From the NCBI GenBank assembly GCA_024613925.1, contig GCA_024613925.1_4713.1: a DNA stretch of 64,000 nucleotides, one strand, 5' to 3'. Of this stretch, positions 11,449-59,700 are shown piece after piece. Origin of the DNA: a phage. The stretch's first letter is position 1; each line of letters opens with the position of its first letter. Position numbers and translations under genes: made by a program. A model generated the notes under the pieces. The model was not told the DNA's origin. It saw only the letters and a list, made by a program, of their open reading frames with translations, and ran no database searches.

Positions 11449-11685
11449 TTAGCAATGGTTGTTAGTTGCTTCTATTTCGTCAAGATACGGTTCTACGTCA
11501 TCGCCCTCCACGAATTCGTTGAACCAACAGTCAATGGTAGAAATAACCGGCGACTGGTGTTCACATTTCTTAGATACCTTAAAAGGTACGTTATTATCCA
11601 TCATACCGAGTTCGGGTCGAAAACGCCCGAAATGTTTCGCAGTCCAAATATCTGGGACGATATGGTTGTTCATCGTAGTGTTCAG
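11449..11685 (-). CDS. RNA polymerase beta-prime N-terminal fragment (non-virion RNAP candidate), proposed exon 3
   Basis: Translation LNTTMNNHIVP.. resembles beta-prime segment (A)LMMSTNNILSP downstream of NADFDGD; in-frame stop 3 codons upstream of the track ATG and no need for own start if spliced to mini-exon; G of track ATG proposed as intron terminal G. Confidence 0.4.
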   Translation of the reverse strand: MNTTMNNHIVPDIWTAKHFGRFRPELGMMDNNVPFKVSKKCEHQSPVISTIDCWFNEFVEGDDVEPYLDEIEATNNHC

Positions 11686-12028
11686 CATGAGTCGCTACCT
11701 CATACCCGCAGCTTTACCTGCAGCTTCCGGTGTTACCGGAATGACCAGAATACATCTTATCCATATTCCAAATGGAACGTAGGACTTCCGCGCTGGATCT
11801 CGCTTGAGACCACGTATTCGTTGAACGTTCTCCTGAACGGAGCTTCGCTGCTGATCGAACATTGTCACGTACGGTAGGCGTCCCCGAAGGGATTGTCATT
11901 GAAGCCGCGTACATCCGCTACCTTGTTTCTACCTTATCGGTTCCTCTTACGAGGCGTAGCGGCCTTAGCCCTTCCCAGCAATTCACGGAATCCAAGCTCT
12001 TCCTTTCGGAAGGCAGGGCCTATGATTA
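11686..12028 (-). ncRNA. candidate group I intron B (second of tandem pair) in beta-prime gene
   Basis: Minus-strand elements in canonical order: P GAAUUGCUGGGAAGGG (~11966-11990), Q AUCAGCAGCGAAGC (~11846-11859), R GUUCAACGAAUACG (~11811-11827), S AAGAUGUAUUCUGG (~11743-11760); P/Q and R/S complementary (UUGCUG/CAGCAG; GAAUAC/GUAUUC); P9-like hairpin UCCGG-UAACA-CCGGA; 5' splice site pairing (P1) not found. Confidence 0.45.
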
Positions 12029-12041
12029 AGCGTCACCGTCG
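12029..12041 (-). CDS. proposed 13-nt mini-exon encoding (F)DGDA of the beta-prime catalytic NADFDGD motif
   Basis: Minus-strand CGACGGUGACGCU lies immediately after a G that follows the intron A S element; joined to exon 1 (..AAC GCA GAU UU) it reads N-A-D-F-D-G-D-A in frame; followed immediately by UAA. Confidence 0.4.
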
Positions 12042-12419
12042 CTGTTTATCGACTATATCTTCATCCTCGTTGCGAGGAGTCTCCCGTTTTGGTCTGTGTT
12101 TAACAGAGCCTACTCTACTCGACATCGCGTCTTTCGATAGTCTGTGAGCACACATCTTAACGAACATTCGTGGATTCCTAAACAGGTGAATGTTCTTGTT
12201 GAGATGCTTCGCTGCGGATTATTCCCGTCCTACCTCTTTTACCATATCCAGTTCATTACGCTGGCCCTCATCTGTGTCACCACGATGAGTTGGTGTGTAG
12301 TCCGATTACAGAAACTTCCCGTCAATTAGAGAGTTTTAACTATGTTCCTGTTACCAGAAACCAGATCCCGACGGTATCAATAAATCAACGTAAGTTATTG
12401 AATTTATTGAAAAAAACTG
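12042..12419 (-). ncRNA. candidate group I intron A in beta-prime gene, inserted within the NADF/DGD codons
   Basis: Exon ends in U; internal guide-like GAUCUG (~12361-12369) can pair with exon end CAGAUU including U-G wobble; P AAUUGACGGGAAG (~12315-12329), Q AAUCCGCAGCGAAGC (~12207-12223), R GCUCACAGACUAUCG (~12134-12149), S AAGAUAUAGUCGAU (~12049-12066) in order; terminal G at 12042; 3' region after S is unusually short (no obvious P9). Confidence 0.45.
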
Positions 12420-13675
12420 AAATCTGCGTTATAACCTTTGAGGATCATCACGCTTAACCCGATGGTGTTATCCTGCGGATCGCGTTTAACCTTGGTGATT
12501 TCAAGACATTGGTTACTGCTTCGGTCAAGTGATGGGTTTCGAACAAAACCACACACAATCCCATCGAACGGTGTATCAGCAATAAGCTCATCGTGCAGCT
12601 CGCTCATCATCGGATGATAATTACGGACATGTTCCGCAACGAACGCACGTGCTGCTCTCGGTGAATACCCACGATGGAATAGCTTGGATTGGATATGTTC
12701 TTTATTGGTTAAAGTAAATGGTGCGTATGGGAAATGCAGATGATAATAACGATGGTTCGCTGTTATCGAACTGATTACGGTACGCGTGGTGAATGGATGT
12801 AATGTACCTAATATGTTTTTACGTGTGATACCTTTCTTCTTACCGATGAACTCATCGAAAATCGCCGCATGGTATTGCAGCAGCTTCAATTGCACTTTCG
12901 CCATCCAGTTTTCTTTCTTTCTGGCGCTCAAAGGTGTTGTTGGATGATAGATGCTATTCAACGTACCGATAGCATCGATCGCACCTTCCATTTTGCTATC
13001 CGCATAACGACCGGTTGGCGTATTCTCGATAACGAACATCATGGCCGCAGGAAAGCTGATATACTGGCTGAAGAACTTATCACGATGGATACGGATGAAT
13101 TCTCGTAGTGTGTCAACTTTCTCCGTGTTCTTCGGTCCACGTAACGTCGGTCCTTTATACAAGATCTCCATGATGCGATCGAAGTTCTGTATAAAACTAT
13201 TTACGCCACGACGTATCCCGAATACATCGAATTGCTGCTCCAGATAGTTCTTGAGTTCGATGGGTCGTTTTACATTTGGACGGTAACTGGCATCAATGAG
13301 CCACGTCATCGTTTCAAAGCTTTTGATATTCAACTCGCTTGCCAGCACGAGATGGACCAACGGGTTAATGAACGCATCGATTCCTTCAGGAACGCGCGCC
13401 CAAACCGTCGAACGAATCTCTTGTTCTGCTGGGTAGGTTACAACCGTTTTACAGTTTGGACACACCGTGCCGAGCAGCTCACCACGATTGTAGAAACCAC
13501 AACCACATTGTGGTGTGATATCCAACGTATCGCTGGAGTAAACACGGGTGATAAAACTGTTTAATTTCTTCTTCTCTTCGACGACTTTTGTATCGTAATC
13601 GTTCAACAAAATCGGCGTAAAAGGAAGTTCTGCGAGCTGTCTATCGAAACTCACGATATCGAGCATGATGGCCAT
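12420..13675 (-). CDS. RNA polymerase beta-prime N-terminal fragment (non-virion RNAP candidate), exon 1
   Basis: Zn-ribbon CGCG..x13..CPNC like beta-prime N-terminus; GITRKNILGTLHPFTTRTVIS matches beta-prime [21 protein letters not shown]; unspliced ORF ends ...GYNADF-SFFQ-stop, i.e. stops inside the catalytic motif. Confidence 0.6.
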
Positions 13676-50033: not shown

Positions 50034-51143
50034 TTATTTAGCGTCGTTAAAGTAAATATCAACAGCTCGTTCCGTTGCGTAGAGGAGACCAAGATTCACA
50101 GTCCCAACCACTTCCGGTGAACCGATGATACGGTTAGCGATACTGGTGCCACTGAAGATAGCATCAAGGGTGTGCCCGTCTTCGGTTTTGTTCACACCAT
50201 GACCCACGGAAGAGACAACGGATTTCGCTTGTGCTGCGAAGGTACCTTTATCACCCATCCCCGCACCAAGGTCGTAACGCATGAAAATACGGATAGCGAT
50301 CTGGTTCTCGCCTAACGGATTGCCGTCTATTCTCACGTTACTATTGTTGATACGCCCTGTTGCTGCCTCGTTGAGTTTCAGTTCCTTAACGCGTTTAGCT
50401 CGCGCTTTATCCGCTTCACCGACGAGCGCCGCCATGGTTTCACTCATATCCTCAATCTGAGCACGGTACAGTACATCGATCTGTACAACTTCACCATGAA
50501 CGTCAGCACGTGGGTTATACTGACTCATACGACGTAATGCTTCAACGGCTTCCTGACTCTCATCACTCAGATCGGTTGCAATCGGTTCTTCCAGTGTTGC
50601 AAGAATCGTTCGTGGTTCAACGTGATCACCGATTTTCACAAGACCACGAATATTGAGATGGGCGTCAACGATGAGCGTACGGCTCTTAATCGATGGTGTT
50701 ACGAGACGATCGGCAAGATTGTCGAAGATATACGAACTGTCCTCGTGCGTCTCTGGAATATCCAGAATACCGACAAGAGACAGCACACCTGCGCGCCAAA
50801 CAACCTGGCCTGGGTTCCACCAATCGCGTTTGAAATAAAGACGATGGAAAACCACCACATCCTGATCCTTAACGCGATCCCCGACTTTATAATCGGTAAT
50901 GAGATCGTGAGGATAATACTTACCTGGCCCTTTCCCGATTATCGTACCGAGCTGGAAAACCTCTTCCCCTAACTCTGGATCGTCGTATTGTATCGTAAGC
51001 GCAGTTTTGGTGACCTTCTTAACAACACCATCGCCTTGGGCGGCGGCCGCGAAGAGTTTACCAACACGATGCGCGATAACAGTCTCACCGCCGGTGCGCC
51101 ACGGTTGTACATCGTAACCCTCAGCGGCAATCATGCGGTTGTG
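50034..51143 (-). CDS. RNA polymerase beta subunit (virion RNAP candidate), proposed exon 2
   Basis: Track ORF 50034..51164 starts at TTG with no RBS; from HNRMIAAEG it resembles beta ANRALMGANMQRQ, then TGGETVIAHRVGKLFAAAAQGDGVVKKV vs [26 protein letters not shown], and GDKGTFAAQAKSVVS vs GDKMAGRHGNKGVIS (E. coli beta recalled). Confidence 0.5.
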   Translation of the reverse strand, partial: HNRMIAAEGYDVQPWRTGGETVIAHRVGKLFAAAAQGDGVVKKVTKTALTIQYDDPELGEEVFQLGTIIGKGPGKYYPHDLITDYKVGDRVKDQDVVVFHRLYFKRDWWNPGQVVWRAGVLSLVGILDIPETHEDSSYIFDNLADRLVTPSIKSRTLIVDAHLNIRGLVKIGDHVEPRTILATLEEPIATDLSDESQEAVEALRRMSQYNPRADVHGEVVQIDVLYRAQIEDMSETMAALVGEADKARAKRVKELKLNEAATGRINNSNVRIDGNPLGENQIAIRIFMRYDLGAGMGDKGTFAAQAKSVVSSVGHGVNKTEDGHTLDAIFSGTSIANRIIGSPEVVGTVNLGLLYATERAVDIYFNDAK

Positions 51144-51656
51144 CTGTATACCTATAAATACCAATCTCTTGGGCGAATTTAGTTCTTATTCAACATAATC
51201 GTACTATTACCAGAATAAGACTGAGATTAGATTGTTCAGATAAGGTCGTTAATCTTATCCCGGAGGCGACGATAGGCACATCACCTCCCGCTTGCGCTCT
51301 CACGCAAGAGCAGACTATATCACATCTCGTTTCAAACGGTGCTTCTTCAGCACCTCAACGAGAGTTCACTTCTTCCCAGCGCATCCAGCGCCATTCTCTT
51401 ATCCAAGGAGAATGCCTCACTCGAGGGGTACAGGGGGATGAATCCCTTAGTCGTTGAACCTTTACCTTAGAACGCTTCACAGCGATCCTTAGGTACTTGG
51501 CTGCGGATTGTCCTTAAGCTATTATCTGTTTTTATAACCATACCGTCTTTCTTTTCAGAATCCGTTTTGGTCGATAACAGCGATGGATGTCTTCGCAATT
51601 CAGTGAATCTCATCTACATGTCGCCACATAGACGGACCCTGCTATTAAAAGCGTTA
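51144..51656 (-). ncRNA. candidate group I intron in RNAP beta gene, inserted at conserved HDD/ANR motif
   Basis: 513 nt with no ORF; minus-strand P AAUUGCGAAGACAUCC (~51583-51602), Q AAUCCGCAGCC (~51495-51513), R GUUCAACGACUAAGG (~51436-51466), S GUGAUAUAGUCUG (~51305-51326) in order; UUGCG/CGCAG and GACUA/UAGUC complementary; exon 1 ends in U followed by UAA; G precedes exon 2; splice keeps frame (..DRDD-HNRM..); P1 pairing not identified. Confidence 0.5.
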
Positions 51657-54600
51657 ATCATCTCTATCAGCAGCAGGTACTGCAAGCGCCGACGTACTCA
51701 TTATTGACGAGCTACCATCCGTTTTCTCGTCGTAAGGTTTCGTTTCACCGTATACAGACACAATGTTTGCGTTAGGTGCGAGGTAAGCAGAAATACCTAC
51801 GTCCCCACTATCCTTCGTACCTTCGGATACAACACCAATGTCCGACTTGTCGTATTCACGATCGCGTGCGCGTCGAAGCGATGTCTTTGAACGACCCCCG
51901 ATACCGGTCATCGTCGCTTCTTCACCCTGCTTGATATCCAGCATCGGGTTGGTTTCATCGATTACGATGGAAGCGCTGTCGTCGAGAATCTGGTTCCAGA
52001 CGCTTACCGGACTGATTGAGATTTTCTGGCGGTTTCCTTGACTGCTGTTCTCATTCTGACGAATAGCGCCAACCAGATCCTTATACACCAACTCAGCGAA
52101 CTTATCGTACGTTTTAAAACGTTGGTAGTTCACATCGTTCGTGTTAGGTGCCCAATCATCCAGAAGCAGTTCGACGGCACGCAGTAACAACATGGCGAAA
52201 TCGGTAGGTTCTCCCATGTTCTGCAGCAACGTACGGCTTACCGGATCAACGAAAAGACGCTCCATGAGTTCAAGTTCGCGTAAATGGCGAACCTTAAGTC
52301 CAGCCCCATCGACAACGTTAAAATAGATATCTCGATTGTCAAAAGCGCCGCGAGCGTAACCAATGTAGTTACGGTATTCGTTAAACCCACCCAGCAACAA
52401 CGTCGTCATGCGATCGTCTTTACTGAAGATCAGACTTTCGTCGTCAAAGCTCACCGCGAATTCATCGGGTGCTAACCCCATACGAGAGCCGCGAGGTACC
52501 GTACGATAGTTCGCTTTAAGATGTTCTAATAACGGGGTAAGCCCACCCAGATAACTTAGAACAACACCGACCGGAATACGTACACCCATGAATTCAAGAT
52601 CGGCGGCTTCGATCGGCATCTTAGCCGCATTGATACCGAAGAAATCAGGGAACGTCCCTACAGGTGTTGGTGTTTGTCCTGACTGACAGATATAGAGCTG
52701 ATTGCGTTTATCGATTGCTAAGAATTCACCCAGCGTGTTACGCGCAAACGTCAGGAGTCCTTCGGCTAACTGTTCGTTGAACCGATCTTCCCCAATGAAC
52801 TCCGGCAATGTCTTTGTATCGAGACGTATATCCCAATCAGCAAATTGGATTTGGGTATAGTTGCGTGCAAGCACAGCGAAGTAATACGGAACTTTGACAG
52901 CTGGATCAAAGACGTTACCACGTTTCAACGTGGTTAAGGGTGAGGACTTATCGTAATACATCGCCGTAAGTTGACGTGTTAGCCAACGACCCGCATTATT
53001 AACGACACGCTCTGAACGTTTAACAAACACCTTACCGTAGGCGGTACTCAACGCAACTTCAGATGACGATACCTTTCTAATAGGTTTATCAACACGTTGT
53101 TTACGCATCCGGTATTTGATGCCGTTAACGACATAAATGCCGTCCTTACGAACCTTCGGCAACATCACCGGGAACGTGGTCGGGACACCGCCTACAGGAG
53201 CCAGTTTAATCGTGATGACTTGATAATCCCCCATCACGTCAACAACATCTTCAACTTTATATCCCGTGACAGGGTAACCTGCCTGCTGTACCGCAACGAC
53301 GGCAGCTGCGATGTCCTTTTGCATTACGTGTTCAACGTAATGTTTATCCCACACCGCAAGCGTCGATTTACACAGGCTCTTATCGACGATAACATCCGCT
53401 TCCGGCATAACCTTTGCAGGCGCTAATTTTGCGGCTTTTGGTTTAACTTCAACATACTCAGCAAGTGTTAATCCAGAACCGTCGGGTGCTTCGATTTCAT
53501 GGATGGCGTCAGCATTACGCATCGCTGCTTTATATTGGACACCGCTTAACTGACCCGCATCCGCCAGATCGCTCGCGCGTACCAACACCGCATCCGATAA
53601 CGACTGAATATATTCGCCATGCGTTTTCGGTAACGTTGCCGCGTCAAAGACATCAACCTTTTCTTCTTCGGTATCGTCGGTAACGACTTCGAAGAGATCG
53701 TCGGTAATGTCCTGATCTTCATCGGGCTGGAAATCTGGTTGTACTTCTACCCCGGGTACTTCACGGACATCTTCGAACGAGCGTTCTACAATGGCGTTCC
53801 ACGCATCGGCATCATCGTCTTCATCCGACCCACCGACCAACTCCGCTTCTAACTCGTCGGGATCAAGAACGGTAGCGAGATCCTCACCGTTAGGAAGCAC
53901 GACGTCGCGATCATCATACTCCGCATCCGGGCTGTCCGCAAGAATATCTCGCTCTTGACGAAGAACCTGTTCCTCTTCTTGTTTCTGTTCTTCTTCATTC
54001 GCGCTCTGCGACCACAGACGTGTTACCGCCATCATCCAACGACGTTGGAAGGTTTCAAGTGTCGTTTTATCGAGTTCTTCCCCTTCCTTCACAAGTCCGG
54101 TACGCCATTCTTCCAGCAGGCCGAGATTCAGCGTAAAGAAGTACACACCGTCTGTAAATACGATGTTAAGCTTATCCAGCGTGGCTCTGTCTAACGAAGC
54201 CATCGTGCTGTTCTCACGATCGGTTCCCAACCAGCGGAAGAAGTCAAAGAACGACAGCTCCTCCGGTGTGGCGAAATTCATGAGGTTATTACGGGTCGGT
54301 GCCTGTTGCGTGGTACGCATCAACGAAATCTTCGGCAATGTTGACGGTATACGGAACAACAAAAAGTGTTGGCGATCGCTTTGCTGTGCGATTTCGTTGG
54401 CTTTCGACCAAATTGTTTTACGTACGTTGAACCATTCATCATACCAACGGGTGAGCGTTGGACGATAAATGTACATGTGGTTAAGATGCGCGTAGTTAGC
54501 AACGATCTGAGCGTTGATGTTTTTCTCCACCGTGCTTAGATCGGTAACCAAACGAAAACGACGATGTGATGCACGATAATCCAATTTCGCTCGTGGGAGT

Positions 54601-54863
54601 TGGAATCGTTGATCACGTCGAGGTGCACCCTGTTTGGTTGCGAGATCATCAGCAAACGAAATCCATAGTTGAGCACTTTCTTTACTCAGCATGTATTCGT
54701 TTTCTGGAGGACCTATCAATGAAGGATCCGTTGCGGTGTAATGATAGACAGCATAACGCGGCAGCTGCAATAGCTGCACTAAACGTAATCTTGGTGATAG
54801 TAACTCTTGGTAGCGTCTGACACCAAACTGTCGGTAGTAATCAAGGTATTTAAGTTTTGCCAT
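51657..54863 (-). CDS. RNA polymerase beta subunit (virion RNAP candidate), exon 1
   Basis: 1069 aa; C-terminal DETNPMLDIKQGEEATMTGIGGRS resembles beta Rif-region [24 protein letters not shown]; ends ..SALAVPAADRDD like ..ASLIPFLEHDD; AGLKVRHLRELELMERL resembles VGLVRVERAVKERL; GGAG RBS; long acidic insert. Confidence 0.5.
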
Positions 54864-54866
54864 GGG

Positions 54867-56513
54867 TTAGGCTCCACGAGGTCCCGTTAAGTTGCGTAAT
54901 AGGAACGCAACCGTATCGTAACCAATATCAATGTTGAATTTATTTTTACCACTTACCCAGAAAGCTCGCTTCTTGTGCGAGTTGGTAATTTCGTCAATAG
55001 CTTCCATGGAATAAAGAACGTTAACCGAGACCGTATCACCGTCGAAGTCCGCCCCGAGGCCAGCTAGAAACACCTGGCCGACTTGGGTCGTTTCTACAAA
55101 TGACGCTTTCAATGACCAATCTGGGTATTCCCATGCCATATACCGATCGCCTTCTAACGGTTGCCAATCGACACCGAGTTCTCTTCTTGGCTTCGTGTTA
55201 ACTGTCGTCCGCACATAGCAGGTTAACGGTATAACTGATTGCATTCCCGATACTGGATAACGTGTCACCATCGCACCGAGTTTATTCCAAAGATGATAAC
55301 CGCTCAGATAAACCAATTCGCAGTATGTAACCGGATGAACATTAGCGCCAGGTTTGTTCAGCATCTCTGGGGGTATTTCACTCATGCCACGGAATAACCG
55401 AAACGAATCGTTGTTCACATAGACGAGGCAAAGATAACGCCCATTAACCATGATAGGTTCGTTACGCACACCAGGATCGCTTAGCGTGTTCAGTAAACGT
55501 TCGATACCGTCCCACGTTGTAAAGTCATCGATGGTATCTGGGTCTAACGTGACGCGTTCACGTTCCATCGTTTCGGTATCGATAAGCTCAGCTTCAGTAA
55601 CATCACGAACAAATATTTCCTGCAAAATCCCCGTACGTAATGCGTGCTGTGTGATAGGAAGAGCAGCCTTGCTCATCTGATATAGACCAAGTTGTACTGA
55701 TGTACACGAAGTCTGGTTCGGTGAGCCGAGAACCTCTGTAGTTGGGATGACAGCCGAAATAACGTTACGGGTTGAGTTCCAAACGCGACGTGAACCGAAC
55801 TTCCCTTGGAAGATCCCTTTCTTACCTTGGAACATATCCAACAACAAAGCGTAGATATCGTTGAATGTTCTCTGTAAGCTCCAGCGCTGGCCGTCGTAAA
55901 CGGGATCGGAATAATCTTTTAATCCATCAGGGACGGTGTTAGAAATTGCAAGGAAACGACGATACAACTCCGTGATTTCTTGCTCGCTTTCATACCCGCC
56001 TTCTTTTACTTCTATTTCACGTAAGCCTGCAGGTAATACCAGTAAGTGACGGGTCATCGCTTTGAACATGTTCTCTTCGACAACTTTAATTCGTAGCTCT
56101 CGTTGAGCTGAACCCGTTGAAACGAACTTGATATCCGCGACGTGTTGTGCAAAGAACCCGTATCCTGTTTGTCCTGTTAACGCATCAGACGCAACGAAGT
56201 CGCGTTGTTCAGGATCCCAACGAGCATACGCCTTTCCCGACATGATATCACCATAGAGGTGTTTTAGTCGAATGAGGCGGTCGTAAATGACAGGGTGCAG
56301 GATTTCAACCTTGCATTCAATCACCGCAAATCGACGGTCTCGATCTTCACTACCTGCACTACCAAAGATGGTGTAAGAATAGAAACCATCATCGTGGAAA
56401 TTACCGGTGCTTGGGTCACGAATGCTCATGCTCGTGATCTTGGGGAGAAAACGTAACTGCTGTTTATCGAGGTGTAAAATACTAATGTTAAACGGCTCTC
56501 TGACTTTAGCCAT
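54867..56513 (-). CDS. RNA polymerase beta-prime N-terminal fragment (virion RNAP candidate)
   Basis: Contains intact catalytic motif GADFDGDTVSV (NADFDGD family) and GKKGIFQGKFGSRRVWNSTRNVISAVIP matching [24 protein letters not shown]; track ORF trimmed to ATG (MAKVRE..) with GGAG 8 nt upstream; adjacent and divergent to giant lysozyme-domain gene as phiKZ gp180/gp181. Confidence 0.6.
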   Translation of the reverse strand: MAKVREPFNISILHLDKQQLRFLPKITSMSIRDPSTGNFHDDGFYSYTIFGSAGSEDRDRRFAVIECKVEILHPVIYDRLIRLKHLYGDIMSGKAYARWDPEQRDFVASDALTGQTGYGFFAQHVADIKFVSTGSAQRELRIKVVEENMFKAMTRHLLVLPAGLREIEVKEGGYESEQEITELYRRFLAISNTVPDGLKDYSDPVYDGQRWSLQRTFNDIYALLLDMFQGKKGIFQGKFGSRRVWNSTRNVISAVIPTTEVLGSPNQTSCTSVQLGLYQMSKAALPITQHALRTGILQEIFVRDVTEAELIDTETMERERVTLDPDTIDDFTTWDGIERLLNTLSDPGVRNEPIMVNGRYLCLVYVNNDSFRLFRGMSEIPPEMLNKPGANVHPVTYCELVYLSGYHLWNKLGAMVTRYPVSGMQSVIPLTCYVRTTVNTKPRRELGVDWQPLEGDRYMAWEYPDWSLKASFVETTQVGQVFLAGLGADFDGDTVSVNVLYSMEAIDEITNSHKKRAFWVSGKNKFNIDIGYDTVAFLLRNLTGPRGA

Positions 56514-56758
56514 GGAGACACTCCTCTTTACCACCACCGGCTGCGGCGGTATCATCTGAACACACGAGAGACGTAATGGGTGATGGCGTCACCCATCGCT
56601 TCCTTGCCTGATGCCAGGAAGTTATTAGGTTACGTGCCTGCTTGATAAAATCAAGCAGGCGATGTGTGAAGTTACGCTTCAACATTATCAATGCCGAAGG
56701 TAAGCTTCGTGCATCACGTTCCAACGTAACATGGGAACGTATCGAACTGGAGGTATAC

Positions 56759-59700
56759 ATGGTAGATAAAACCCGTGTTGAGGGTGATGATAATTGGGAT
56801 AACTGGGATGATGACTTCTCCCTGGATCTCGATTTTGATGAGCCTAAAGACGATCGTAAGCCAATAACACGCTTTGCGGTAGGGGCGGTTAAAGGTGCTG
56901 CTGAGGATCTTACTTCCTACGAAAGAATGAAGGAGATCGCCAGAAACGCATTGCCTAAGGGCTACAGCGACGGTATGGATCTTATTGATTCCGCCGTCGG
57001 ATCCACGAAGGAACTATACAATGAAGCCGTTCGTGACGTTCTTCCTAAGGTCCAAAGCTCAAAACGGTTAGCAGCACAACTAACCAAGAAATACCGTGCG
57101 AGCATGCCCGATTTCTCGAAGAAAATTCTCGAGCAATGGGAGCGAGAAGCCAAGGAAGAAGACGAACGTAAACAGGCTGAAGCAGAACTCAAGCAACGCA
57201 TGGCGAGCGCGGGAGATAATGAAATCGCCCGTAAGGTTGCCGAAGCGTTAGGCGAATCAGCAAACCAAAGCGCGGATCAGTTTGCCGAACAGCAAGCAAA
57301 AGAAAGTATCCGTGACGATATCGCTGACAAACGGTACGCTGTAACCAACAAACAAATGAGTGCGATGCAAGAAGGCGTCGCCAAGATGGTTGGTTTCAAC
57401 AATGAATTCGCTGCGCGCTACATGCGTAAAAGCCTGGAACTGAAATATCGTTCCTTAGCGATTCAACGTGCAAGTTTTGATCAGCATAAAAAGTTAGCCG
57501 AAGTCTATATCGGTTTATTACAAAACATCCAGAAGAACACGGCTTTACCTGATGCGGCTAAAGCGAAAATGTCGGAAGAATTCCGTCGTAGTGCATACCA
57601 ACGTTTCTTTGGTAATACGTTAGATGCGATGAGTTCTTTCGAGAACCGTTTCTTTGCCGATGTTAAGAAAAACCTATCCAGGAACATCGTCGGAGCTTTA
57701 TCGGGATTCGCTGAAAGCAGTCGAGACGCACTGTCTGGCCTCGCCGAAGTGAAAGACGGTATGTCCATGATGGATGGAATTGGTTCGGAAGGCGATATAA
57801 AGGAGATGAAGGGGAGAATGCTGGGCCAGCTTATCGGCACGGCAGTAACCCCATGGCTTGCCGAGAAAGGATCGACAGCACTACGTGATTTTGCAAAACG
57901 CCATCCTAACTCAAAAATCGCATCCGCAATAAAAACCATTGATGCTGGTGGCGATGCGGCCGCATTTACCAGTCGTAACATCGGTAAAATTCTTCAAGAG
58001 GACATTCGGAAAAACCAGTTTAATCTCAGCGATCCGTGGTATAAACGTTTCTTACGGGATACCGGAAGCATGATGTTCAACATGGACACCGGACGTAACT
58101 TCCGTGTGATGAACGACACCGCTGAAACACTGGCGGAGCAAACGTCTTTCGACGGTTTAACTTACCGCAGCATCAATGAAGTTATTCCTGGTTTTCTTGC
58201 ACGCATTCTGAAAAGCAGTGAAGGCATCCGTACGGGAAACAGCGATCCTGACTACGAGGTCTATGACAGCATCAGCGGGCAATTCGTGGCTCAGCGCACG
58301 CGTGAACAAAGCGTCAATGACACGCTGTTTAACAAACGTACATTTGGTTATTACGCCAGCCGTTTCAACGAGGTTATCTCGGTCATCGATCCCGATAAGA
58401 AATTATCGGATAACGCAAGAAAAGGATTAGCAAAACAGCTAGCTCGTGACAGCGACGCAAACATTGCATTCGACCCGGCTCGTTTTACGGATGAAAGCAA
58501 CTTCGATCGTAGTATCGACCGTGACGCTATTAAGGAACTTTCTAATTACTTCCGTAACCGTTACGGTATCGACTACGTACCCGATGAAAAAGGACAACGC
58601 CATCAGGTCATTGGAAACCGCGGGCAATATTACACGGAACGTAACCGAGCTGACCTTCGCTACGGTAATTTGAAATCGTTACAACCGGATATCCAGCGTA
58701 ACCTTAACCTACTGAAACGTACTGGTGACGTCCAATATCTGGAACGGATTGGGATTGTAACGAGAAATAGCGACGGAAGCTACTCGGTTAATCACGATCG
58801 GTATTTCTCTGAAATCGATCGATACATCGACCGACCGGAGTACGCTGAACGCAGTGATGTTAATACGCGATTAACCGCTCAGGAAACAAGAGCGCTGGCG
58901 CTGGGTTATCGTGACGCAAAACCATCAGTTGATGACGTGCAAAATGCGGGTCGGCCACACATCGATCGTAAGGCTGTTGGAACAGTAACCGTTGATGAAA
59001 ACATCGGTTACGATAAATGGTGGAACGACACAGGTGTTATCACCACATCGCTTGAAGAACAGAATCGAGCGTGGCAAGAGCTTTATCTCGAAGCGTTATC
59101 TGAAGCATCCGAACAACGTACTGAAATGCTTGCGTTGCTGAAAGCCATTTCTGAGAAAGACTGGTCTAATAACGTTTCGTTGGATGGCGAAGATGTACCT
59201 GAAGGTGCGGCACCCATTTCATTTATCGATCGCGCCAAACAAAAACTCGGTGCACGCAACCTCTTTAAAGGCGGTCGTAATCTCCTCTGGAAAGGAATTA
59301 AAAATACCGCACGTCTGGGTGTTAAAGGCGCACGCTGGGGTGCAGAACGCACGTTGGGCAGTTTGGTAAATTCTGGCCGACGCATTATCAATTTCAACCG
59401 TTTTGTGTTCGGTGCATTATCCAAGGTTGATCAGGTTCCGTTTGACATTTACGTTAAAGGGGAATCCCAGCCACGCATATTGGCTGCCAAACTTCGTCAG
59501 GGGTTATACTTCGACGAAGCGACAGGAAAAGCTGTAAAACGGATGAAGGATATCAAAGGTCCACTCGTTGATGCGGATGGAAATATCGTAATCAGTAACG
59601 AGGATATCGAGAAAGGGTTGGTCACTCGCGCTGGTCGTGCCTTTGAGAATTCAGGACTTAAGGCGTGGGCACGTGAAGGTCTTAATGGAATCACAACGGT

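Follow-up and report, generated by a model that had tools for sequence, protein, structure and literature searches.

A probable group I intron without an open reading frame in the virion RNA polymerase beta-like gene of a Goslar-like Escherichia coli jumbo phage

The window analysed here is a 64-kb stretch (64,000 nucleotides, nt) of phage contig GCA_024613925.1_4713.1, in which the gene for an RNA polymerase (RNAP) beta-like subunit, on the minus strand, is very probably interrupted by a group I intron. An open reading frame (ORF) of 1069 amino acids (aa), 51654..54863 on the minus strand, ended ...AADRDD-UAA, and a TTG-initiated ORF at 50034..51164 on the same strand read MVFIGIQHNRMIAAEG... 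The ORF list contained no ORF longer than 49 aa in the gap between them. All of this was as described in the original prediction, made from the same sequence, which had proposed a group I intron in the RNAP beta gene after the Asp-Asp codons. The intron was borne out by a covariance model, the intron-less gene of phage Goslar, the coverage of a PHROGs profile and homologous introns at the same site. The locus comprised the following parts:

51657..54863, minus strand: exon 1, 1069 codons ending GAU GAU (Asp-Asp); matches phrog_3148 and aligns with Goslar gp207.
51174..51656, minus strand: group I intron, no ORF; 5' end UAACGC, 3' end ...UAAAUUCG (AAAUUCG), with the omega-G at 51174.
50034..51173, minus strand: exon 2, 379 codons plus stop, beginning PKRL; matches phrog_3148.

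Goslar was the closest sequenced phage (95% nucleotide identity), and its gp207 gene (4347 nt, annotated 'RNA polymerase beta subunit') was uninterrupted at the intron site. BLAST and local alignment showed that the net insertion in the window relative to Goslar was exactly 483 nt, with the intron occupying 51656..51174 on the minus strand. Only one placement of the boundaries put a U before the 5' splice site, as originally proposed, and a G before the 3' splice site: exon 1 ended GAU GAU at U51657 and exon 2 opened CCC AAG AGA UUG at 51173, directly after G51174. The 3' boundary thus lay 30 nt upstream of the 51144 proposed originally. Across the uninterrupted site Goslar read DD-GKRLVFVGIQHNRM, encoded by GACCGTGACGAT^GGAAAACGTCTG (^ marks the junction), while the predicted spliced sequence of the window was ...GAGAUGAU^CCCAAGAG, encoding ...AADRDD^PKRLVFIGIQHNRM (...AADRDD-PKRLVFIGIQ...). 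Predicted exon ligation restored the reading frame, in which TTG 51164 codes for an internal Leu and is not a start. The first codon of the intron was a UAA stop in frame with exon 1. An intein was ruled out by this UAA and by stops in all frames, and translational bypass was considered and rejected.

The Rfam scan matched RF00028 at 51658..51291 on the minus strand over the full model (positions 1-253), with a score of 56.2 bits against a gathering score of 50 and E=1.4e-11, values far beyond chance. It was the sole match to reach its gathering threshold anywhere in the window. The predicted fold of the 483-nt segment had an energy z-score of -5.1 relative to shuffled sequence. The P (AAUUGCGAAGAC, 51600..51589), Q (AAUCCGCAGC, 51509..51500), R (GUUCAACGACUA, 51459..51448) and S (GAUAUAGUCU, 51321..51312) elements of the minus strand occurred in this order, as had been noticed from the letters, P pairing with Q in P4 (with one A.C mismatch) and R with S in P7 to build a P3-P8 core. 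The splice-site U51657 stood opposite G51637 of the guide sequence, forming the expected wobble pair.

Removal of the 483 nt gave a coding sequence of 4347 nt and 1448 aa, the length of Goslar gp207 and not the approximately 1438 aa first estimated, and the spliced protein was 98.7% identical to gp207 with no gaps. Exon 1 covered positions 2-1050 of phrog_3148 (RNA polymerase beta subunit, E=1e-290) and exon 2, read from PKRL, covered positions 1051-1420 (E=5e-120), so that the two matches were contiguous. In tblastn searches, the 200 aa across the junction aligned in one piece with phiKZ gp178 (46.5% identity) and likewise with about 280 other jumbo-phage records. Pfam searches of the spliced beta protein and the neighbouring beta' protein returned no family, and the C-terminal 479 aa had no match at E<=1 among PDB sequences; consequently, the identity of the gene rests on PHROGs, tblastn and the literature. 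The interrupted gene is a homolog of phiKZ gp178 and Goslar gp207, the N-terminal beta piece of the virion RNAP; phiKZ gp178 is the beta-like subunit packaged in the virion (PMC11620839). Splicing would therefore restore a normal gp178-type protein rather than the unusual single-chain beta, unlike that of phiKZ, that had been envisaged.

The second Asp of the motif was aligned with D675 of E. coli RpoB by Birkholz et al. (PMC11620839). Pairwise BLASTP of RpoB with the spliced protein gave colinear, ungapped but weak high-scoring segments (E values of 0.088 and 2.9) and was used solely to decide which residues face ANR. It paired DRDD-PKR with EHDD-ANR, with the Rif region just upstream, in agreement with the published placement, so that PKR, directly after DD, took the place assigned earlier to HNR. 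The intron site thus follows directly the conserved Asp-Asp codons, D674-D675 of E. coli RpoB.

Three further Goslar-like genomes contained the same intron. In IMGVR_UViG_3300011560_000001 (L007/L010) it was 1583 nt long and carried a 403-aa NUMOD1/HNH ORF in the P1 loop, while the introns of IMGVR_UViG_3300045988_173921 (L011, 461 nt) and metagenome contig OGZS01000006.1 (L014, 503 nt) had no ORF. Formal counting of base pairs was confined to these three alleles and the window. The structural elements of the window intron were:

51635..51659, minus strand: P1, exon GAU 51659..51657 and U51656 paired with guide GGUC 51638..51635.
51611..51634, minus strand: P2, a 10-bp hairpin with a GCGA (GNRA) tetraloop.
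51458..51607, minus strand: P3 5' strand (51607..51602) and P4-P5-P5a-P6-P6a/b.
51448..51452, minus strand: P7 5' strand GACUA, the end of R, pairing with UAGUC 51317..51313 of S.
51379..51446, minus strand: peripheral insertion between P7 and P3', comprising P7.1, P7.2 and two extra hairpins.
51313..51370, minus strand: P3 3' strand (51370..51365), P8/P8a (51363..51325), J8/7 and P7 3' strand (51317..51313).
51238..51308, minus strand: P9 (51308..51291), P9.1 (51288..51262) and P9.2 (51260..51238).
51182..51221, minus strand: 'P9.3', an extra 3'-terminal hairpin, GUCUUAUUC ... GAAUAAGA(A)C.
51163..51228, minus strand: tail-exon 2 helix, AAUCUC 51228..51223 paired with exon 2 +6..+11 GAGAUU 51168..51163.

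P1 was extended by GCU/AGC (51652..51650 with 51643..51641) and closed by a 6-nt loop, and its four pairs were kept (4/4) in the four alleles. C51173 and C51172 of exon 2 can pair with G51638 and G51639 to form P10, the ligated exons GAU^CC being complementary to the guide GGGUC. The P1 of the Rfam alignment itself (ACGCUUUUA/AGGGUCCGU, mismatched) was dropped in favor of the pairing of exon GAU^U with GGUC. All pairs were formed in P3 (UUCACU/AGUGAA, 6/6), P6 (3/3), P7 (5/5) and P8 (7/7). P7, where the guanosine-binding site of group I introns is located, was invariant in all of the introns at this site. The four Goslar-like alleles did not differ in the insertion between P7 and P3', which comprised P7.1 (GGGA/UCCC, 51446..51435), P7.2 (CCUC/GAGG, 51426..51415) and two further hairpins, CAUUCUC/GAGAAUG and GCGC/GCGC. 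P9.3 was confined to the window, the siblings having a different, shorter hairpin at that place. P7.1, P7.2, P9.1 and P9.2 are typical of IA2 introns such as that in T4 td, and since the window intron had the first two between P7 and P3' and the other two after P9, it was classed by its anatomy as T4-td-like and IA2-like.

In the 122-pair structure, 97.7% of the cells were paired across the four alleles and 10 pairs had changed on both sides. Slid structures gave 0-2 pairs with such two-sided changes, and none of 500 shuffles reached the observed values. All cells of P2 were paired (100%), with five one-sided changes and one two-sided change, and one pair of P9.1 was flipped from A-U to U-A in L011.

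The same GAU GAU is interrupted in Pseudomonas phage PhiPA3, between gp211 and gp209 by an intron containing the HNH gene gp210, and in 201phi2-1, between gp273 and gp274, with Rfam group I scores of 67.8 and 87.4 bits, respectively. The MAFFT alignment of these two introns was unreliable in the 3' half, and their helices were assigned by hand. They had in common with the window intron the position of the guide, the GCGA loop of P2, the R and S elements and the P9.2 loop (UAACGA in PhiPA3, as in the window), and differed from it by compensatory changes in P2, P3, P4, P6 and P9.2. The guide position paired with GAU^UGU in both, in the same register as in the window. The PhiPA3 intron follows the codon for phiKZ gp178 D1072 (E. 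coli D675), as does the window intron, but is 1352 nt long and contains an endonuclease gene, whereas the window intron has 483 nt and none. The latter has in addition the P5, P7.2 and 3'-tail hairpins and the tail-exon 2 helix; between P7 and P3', both PhiPA3 and 201phi2-1 have just two short hairpins in place of the larger insertion. The host of PhiPA3 is Pseudomonas and its junction residue is Met; the window phage has E. coli as its host and Pro at the junction. The 201phi2-1 intron (336 nt) also lacks an ORF, but its peripheral elements are shorter, its P1 has 6 bp and a long non-coding loop, and its 3' tail is short and td-like, with no tail-exon helix. Splicing has experimental support in these two homologous introns only: gp273/274 of 201phi2-1 was annotated as a joined coding sequence found by mass spectrometry, and two exactly spliced Oxford Nanopore Technologies (ONT) reads have been reported for its intron (PMC11512511). 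The gp210 endonuclease of PhiPA3 nicks the intron-less site (Birkholz et al., Science 2024, PMC11620839).

The intron resembled that of td (thymidylate synthase, IA2) of the T-even phages in P7.1/P7.2, P9.1/P9.2, the UAA at the start and the CUGAACA of the tail. It differed in host gene, in having no counterpart of I-TevI (GIY-YIG), which lies in P6 of td, whereas the endonuclease gene of the present lineage is an HNH gene in P1, and in the dissimilarity of the remaining sequence. A segment of 32 nt at 51233..51264 on the minus strand (UCCGGGAUAAGAUUAACGACCUUAUCUGAACA, P9.2 and the start of the tail) was 100% identical to the td introns of approximately 40 T-even-like coliphages, in contrast to the free covariation of P9.2 stems among related introns, and a further 15 nt (GAUAUAGUCUGCUCU, S/J7-9) were also identical to td introns. 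This hints at exchange between introns of unrelated E. coli phages or at very strong constraint. In Mosigvirus phage G2469 (L002), the td 3' half scored only 36 bits against Rfam, the ribozyme being split by the I-TevI ORF.

The window intron held no endonuclease ORF in the ORF list and thus differs from a mobile intron of the PhiPA3 gp210 type. The HNH protein of L007, similar to I-HmuI and gp210, was 36% identical to PhiPA3 gp210 (E=1e-55). Its ORF, within the intron at L007 2976..4558, read through the guide, P2, P3, P4 and P5 and stopped at the J5/4 UAA (GGGUAAUCC), and the loop containing it was closed by a perfect 13-bp stem, UUGUAAACAGAAU/AUUCUGUUUACAA. A tblastn search of the window with three HNH proteins found solely an overlap of 35 aa with the ribozyme core (E=3e-4). 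This similarity arises because the L007 ORF reads through the core, and says nothing on whether an endonuclease gene was lost or never present. An intron lacking a homing endonuclease gene cannot move by itself; the presence of the same intron with an HNH gene in L007 shows that the element belongs to a mobile lineage.

The exons also bore traces of this history. From -120 to +60 of the junction, mismatches to Goslar numbered 16, 15 and 15 per 60 nt, where the mean over the gene was 3.15, a divergence about 5-fold higher, and the flanking exon sequence was common to the intron-bearing alleles, a pattern that would be expected of co-conversion during homing from a diverged donor. The intron itself was a mosaic relative to L007, P6 to P9.2 being 97-100% identical and P1-P5 and the 3' tail much more diverged. 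Occupancy by the intron destroys the target site of the endonuclease and would be expected to confer immunity to it.

In the td, PhiPA3 and 201phi2-1 introns about 9 nt (CUGAA...G) follow P9.2, whereas the Goslar-like introns run on for 37-59 nt, and the tail-exon helix was specific to the Goslar-like lineage. It enclosed a hairpin (P9.3 in the window) and about 12 nt of single strand with the 3' splice site, and was present in the minimum free energy folds of the window, L011 and L007 (3/3 folded); the tail and exon bases of L014 were those of L011. The paired bases were AAUCUC/GAGAUU in the window and AGACGC/GCGUCU in the other alleles, so that three of the six pairs changed on both sides while 100% stayed paired in the four alleles. 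On the exon side the changes were synonymous (Arg AGA/CGU, Leu UUG/CUC). The helix would probably aid in positioning a remote 3' splice site where P10 has only 2 bp and, more speculatively, may make up both for this short P10 and for splicing in a ribosome-free phage nucleus.

Introns were found in other RNAP genes as well. The non-virion RNAP (nvRNAP) beta' gene of the window (ORF 12404..13675, ending GYNADF-SFFQ*) appeared to contain two tandem group I introns on the minus strand at 11673..12420. Intron A (12419..12042) scored 44.6 bits against Rfam and its guide, GUCG-GGAUC, was complementary to the ligated GAUUU^CGAC over 9 bp, while intron B (12028..11674) was weak (17.6 bits, E=0.067 in an 851-nt scan) with a P7 of GAAUA/UAUUC. 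Between them lay a micro-exon of 13 nt, CGACGGUGACGCU (12041..12029), that supplies the catalytic DGD, and exon 3 started AUG AAC AAC at 11673. The modelled NADF-DGDA-MNNHIVPD aligned without gaps with NADFDGDQLNLTLMPD of Pseudomonas phage BRkr, whose homolog is uninterrupted. Goslar has the same micro-exon, with one Intron_gpI annotated there and the exons given as separate genes. Compared with 11640..12450 of the window, Goslar (L008 1955..3019) contained an insertion of 1065 nt with the HNH gene gp186, immediately preceding the micro-exon within the 3' tail of intron A; it is absent from the window, and both nvRNAP beta' introns are therefore free of endonuclease genes there.

The virion RNAP (vRNAP) beta'-like gene of the window (54867..56555, minus strand, 562 aa, GADFDGDT) was intact and adjoined the beta gene. 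In Goslar (L001 758..2954), it was split at GAD^FDGD by a group I intron of about 2.2 kb (67.7 bits) that carried the 490-aa HNH protein gp206; between the two phages the upstream exon was 83-87% identical and the 180 nt downstream were 100% identical. Of these two phages, Goslar alone has the vRNAP beta' intron and the window phage alone the beta intron, so that occupancy is reciprocal in neighboring polymerase genes. The annotated introns of Goslar (HOV27_gs001, gs002), from the same phage genus, are likewise group I introns at catalytic motifs of RNAP subunit genes, but lie in other genes, vRNAP beta' (GAD^FDGD) and nvRNAP beta' (NADF^DGD). A group I intron was also found in Vibrio phage vB_pir03 (L003 3806..4185, 54.7 bits against Rfam) and in Vibrio phage C-ZP2022, 77-79% identical to 51429..51513 of the window over 85 nt. 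It lay among fragmented 'RNA polymerase beta prime subunit' ORFs of these two jumbo phages, which suggests further unannotated RNAP introns. Elsewhere in the window, a weak Rfam match to the ribosomal S15 leader at 57490..57595 on the plus strand, which at 25.8 bits (E=0.075) fell short of its gathering score of 39.5, is probably due to chance.

Taken as a whole, the observations make it very probable that the locus is an ORF-less, td-like group I intron in the gene for the N-terminal beta-like subunit of the virion RNAP of a Goslar-like E. coli chimallivirus. By the usual chemistry of such introns, the pre-mRNA would fold into P1-P9.2, an external guanosine bound at P7 would attack after U51657, held in the U.G wobble of P1, and the freed 3'-OH of exon 1 would attack after the omega-G51174, joining the exons as GAU^CCC in one mRNA for the 1448-aa protein. 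The in-frame UAA at the start of the intron would make unspliced RNA translationally dead. The intron may have lost, or never gained, its endonuclease and would then not be mobile on its own.

Several observations weigh against this interpretation, 1) the Rfam score was only 6 bits over the gathering threshold, 2) P1 has only three base pairs with the exon and P10 only two, 3) P4 (UGCGAA/UCCGCA) has one A.C mismatch and forms 5/6 pairs, 4) Pro stands at the junction, a position occupied by Gly in Goslar and by Met in the Pseudomonas phages, 5) the covariation comes from four close relatives and, in the two distant introns, from helices assigned by hand, and 6) the window intron is known from its sequence, from which its splicing is inferred. 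Moreover, one ONT study (PMC10914365) saw no splicing of introns that genomics had predicted in phiKZ, a case in which prediction did not guarantee activity. At the mismatched position of P4, L007 has G-C and L014 has A-U, with A.C in both the window and L011, which is a textbook covariation path. Pro is also the junction residue in the three other intron-bearing alleles.

The best surviving alternative, although improbable, is that splicing is assisted or regulated, by a trans-acting protein or by the tail-exon helix acting as a switch, so that production of the virion polymerase subunit is gated. The weakness of P1 and P10, the P4 mismatch and the conserved, covarying tail-exon helix would fit such control, but IA2-type phage introns generally self-splice in vitro, no maturase-like ORF was present in the intron or nearby, and the sequence held nothing specific to a switch. 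Transcription is separated from translation in chimalliviruses (PMC12908238), and T4 introns, according to Sandegren and Sjoberg (2007) as cited in PMC10914365, need translation for efficient splicing, both of which would favor an assisted reaction.

It is considerably less likely that the intron is a decayed, non-splicing relic and that the subunit is made as two polypeptides, from exon 1 to the UAA and from the TTG at 51164. The in-frame stop directly after DD followed by a TTG ORF, the P4 mismatch and short P1 of the window allele, the known division of jumbo-phage RNAP subunits into several polypeptides (PMC7598289) and the lack of splicing in some predicted phiKZ introns (PMC10914365) could all be read in this way. 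However, the core helices were all intact and kept by compensatory changes, the PKR codons upstream of the TTG were conserved as coding in Goslar and the siblings, and the break would divide a catalytic-site motif that about 280 homologs have in one piece. A promoter and terminator scan of the coding strand of the gap gave no signal, the AAGAGA abuts the TTG without spacing and is thus a poor ribosome-binding site, and the 201phi2-1 intron at the same site yields a joined protein (PMC11512511). Finally, the 513-nt intron first proposed (51656..51144, DD joined directly to HNRM) can be dismissed, for although G51144 precedes CAC, 513 is a multiple of three and HNR resembles the E. coli ANR by eye, it would remove ten residues, PKRLVFIGIQ, conserved in Goslar, phiKZ, PhiPA3 and 201phi2-1, the PHROG coverage is contiguous and the Goslar coding length matched only with 483 nt, and CC at 51173, rather than CAC, is the pairing partner of the guide.

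Both the presence of group I introns in RNAP genes of chimalliviruses and this particular insertion site have been published. What is new is the occurrence in Goslar-like phages of E. coli, the set of intron-less, endonuclease-bearing and ORF-less alleles, and the tail-exon helix. A bolder proposal, that this helix defines or gates the 3' splice site as a previously undescribed chimallivirus element and that the ORF-less intron is kept as a 'vaccinated' allele, immune to the HNH nickase of Goslar-like siblings, is advanced only tentatively and is more doubtful than not.

With the ORF-less group I intron recognized, two ORFs of an essential virion enzyme become a single gene for a protein of 1448 aa, which corrects the gene model, and the find extends the PhiPA3-type lineage of 'weaponised' RNAP introns from Pseudomonas to E. 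coli jumbo phages. If the proposed role of the tail-exon helix is true, synonymous Arg and Leu codons of a polymerase gene covary with intron bases to preserve it, and the covarying helix offers a concrete hypothesis on the choice of 3' splice site that can be tested by mutation. The five Goslar-like genomes, one intron-less (Goslar), one endonuclease-bearing (L007) and three with ORF-less alleles, constitute a ready-made natural system, in a tractable host, for intron interference and immunity between co-infecting nucleus-forming phages.

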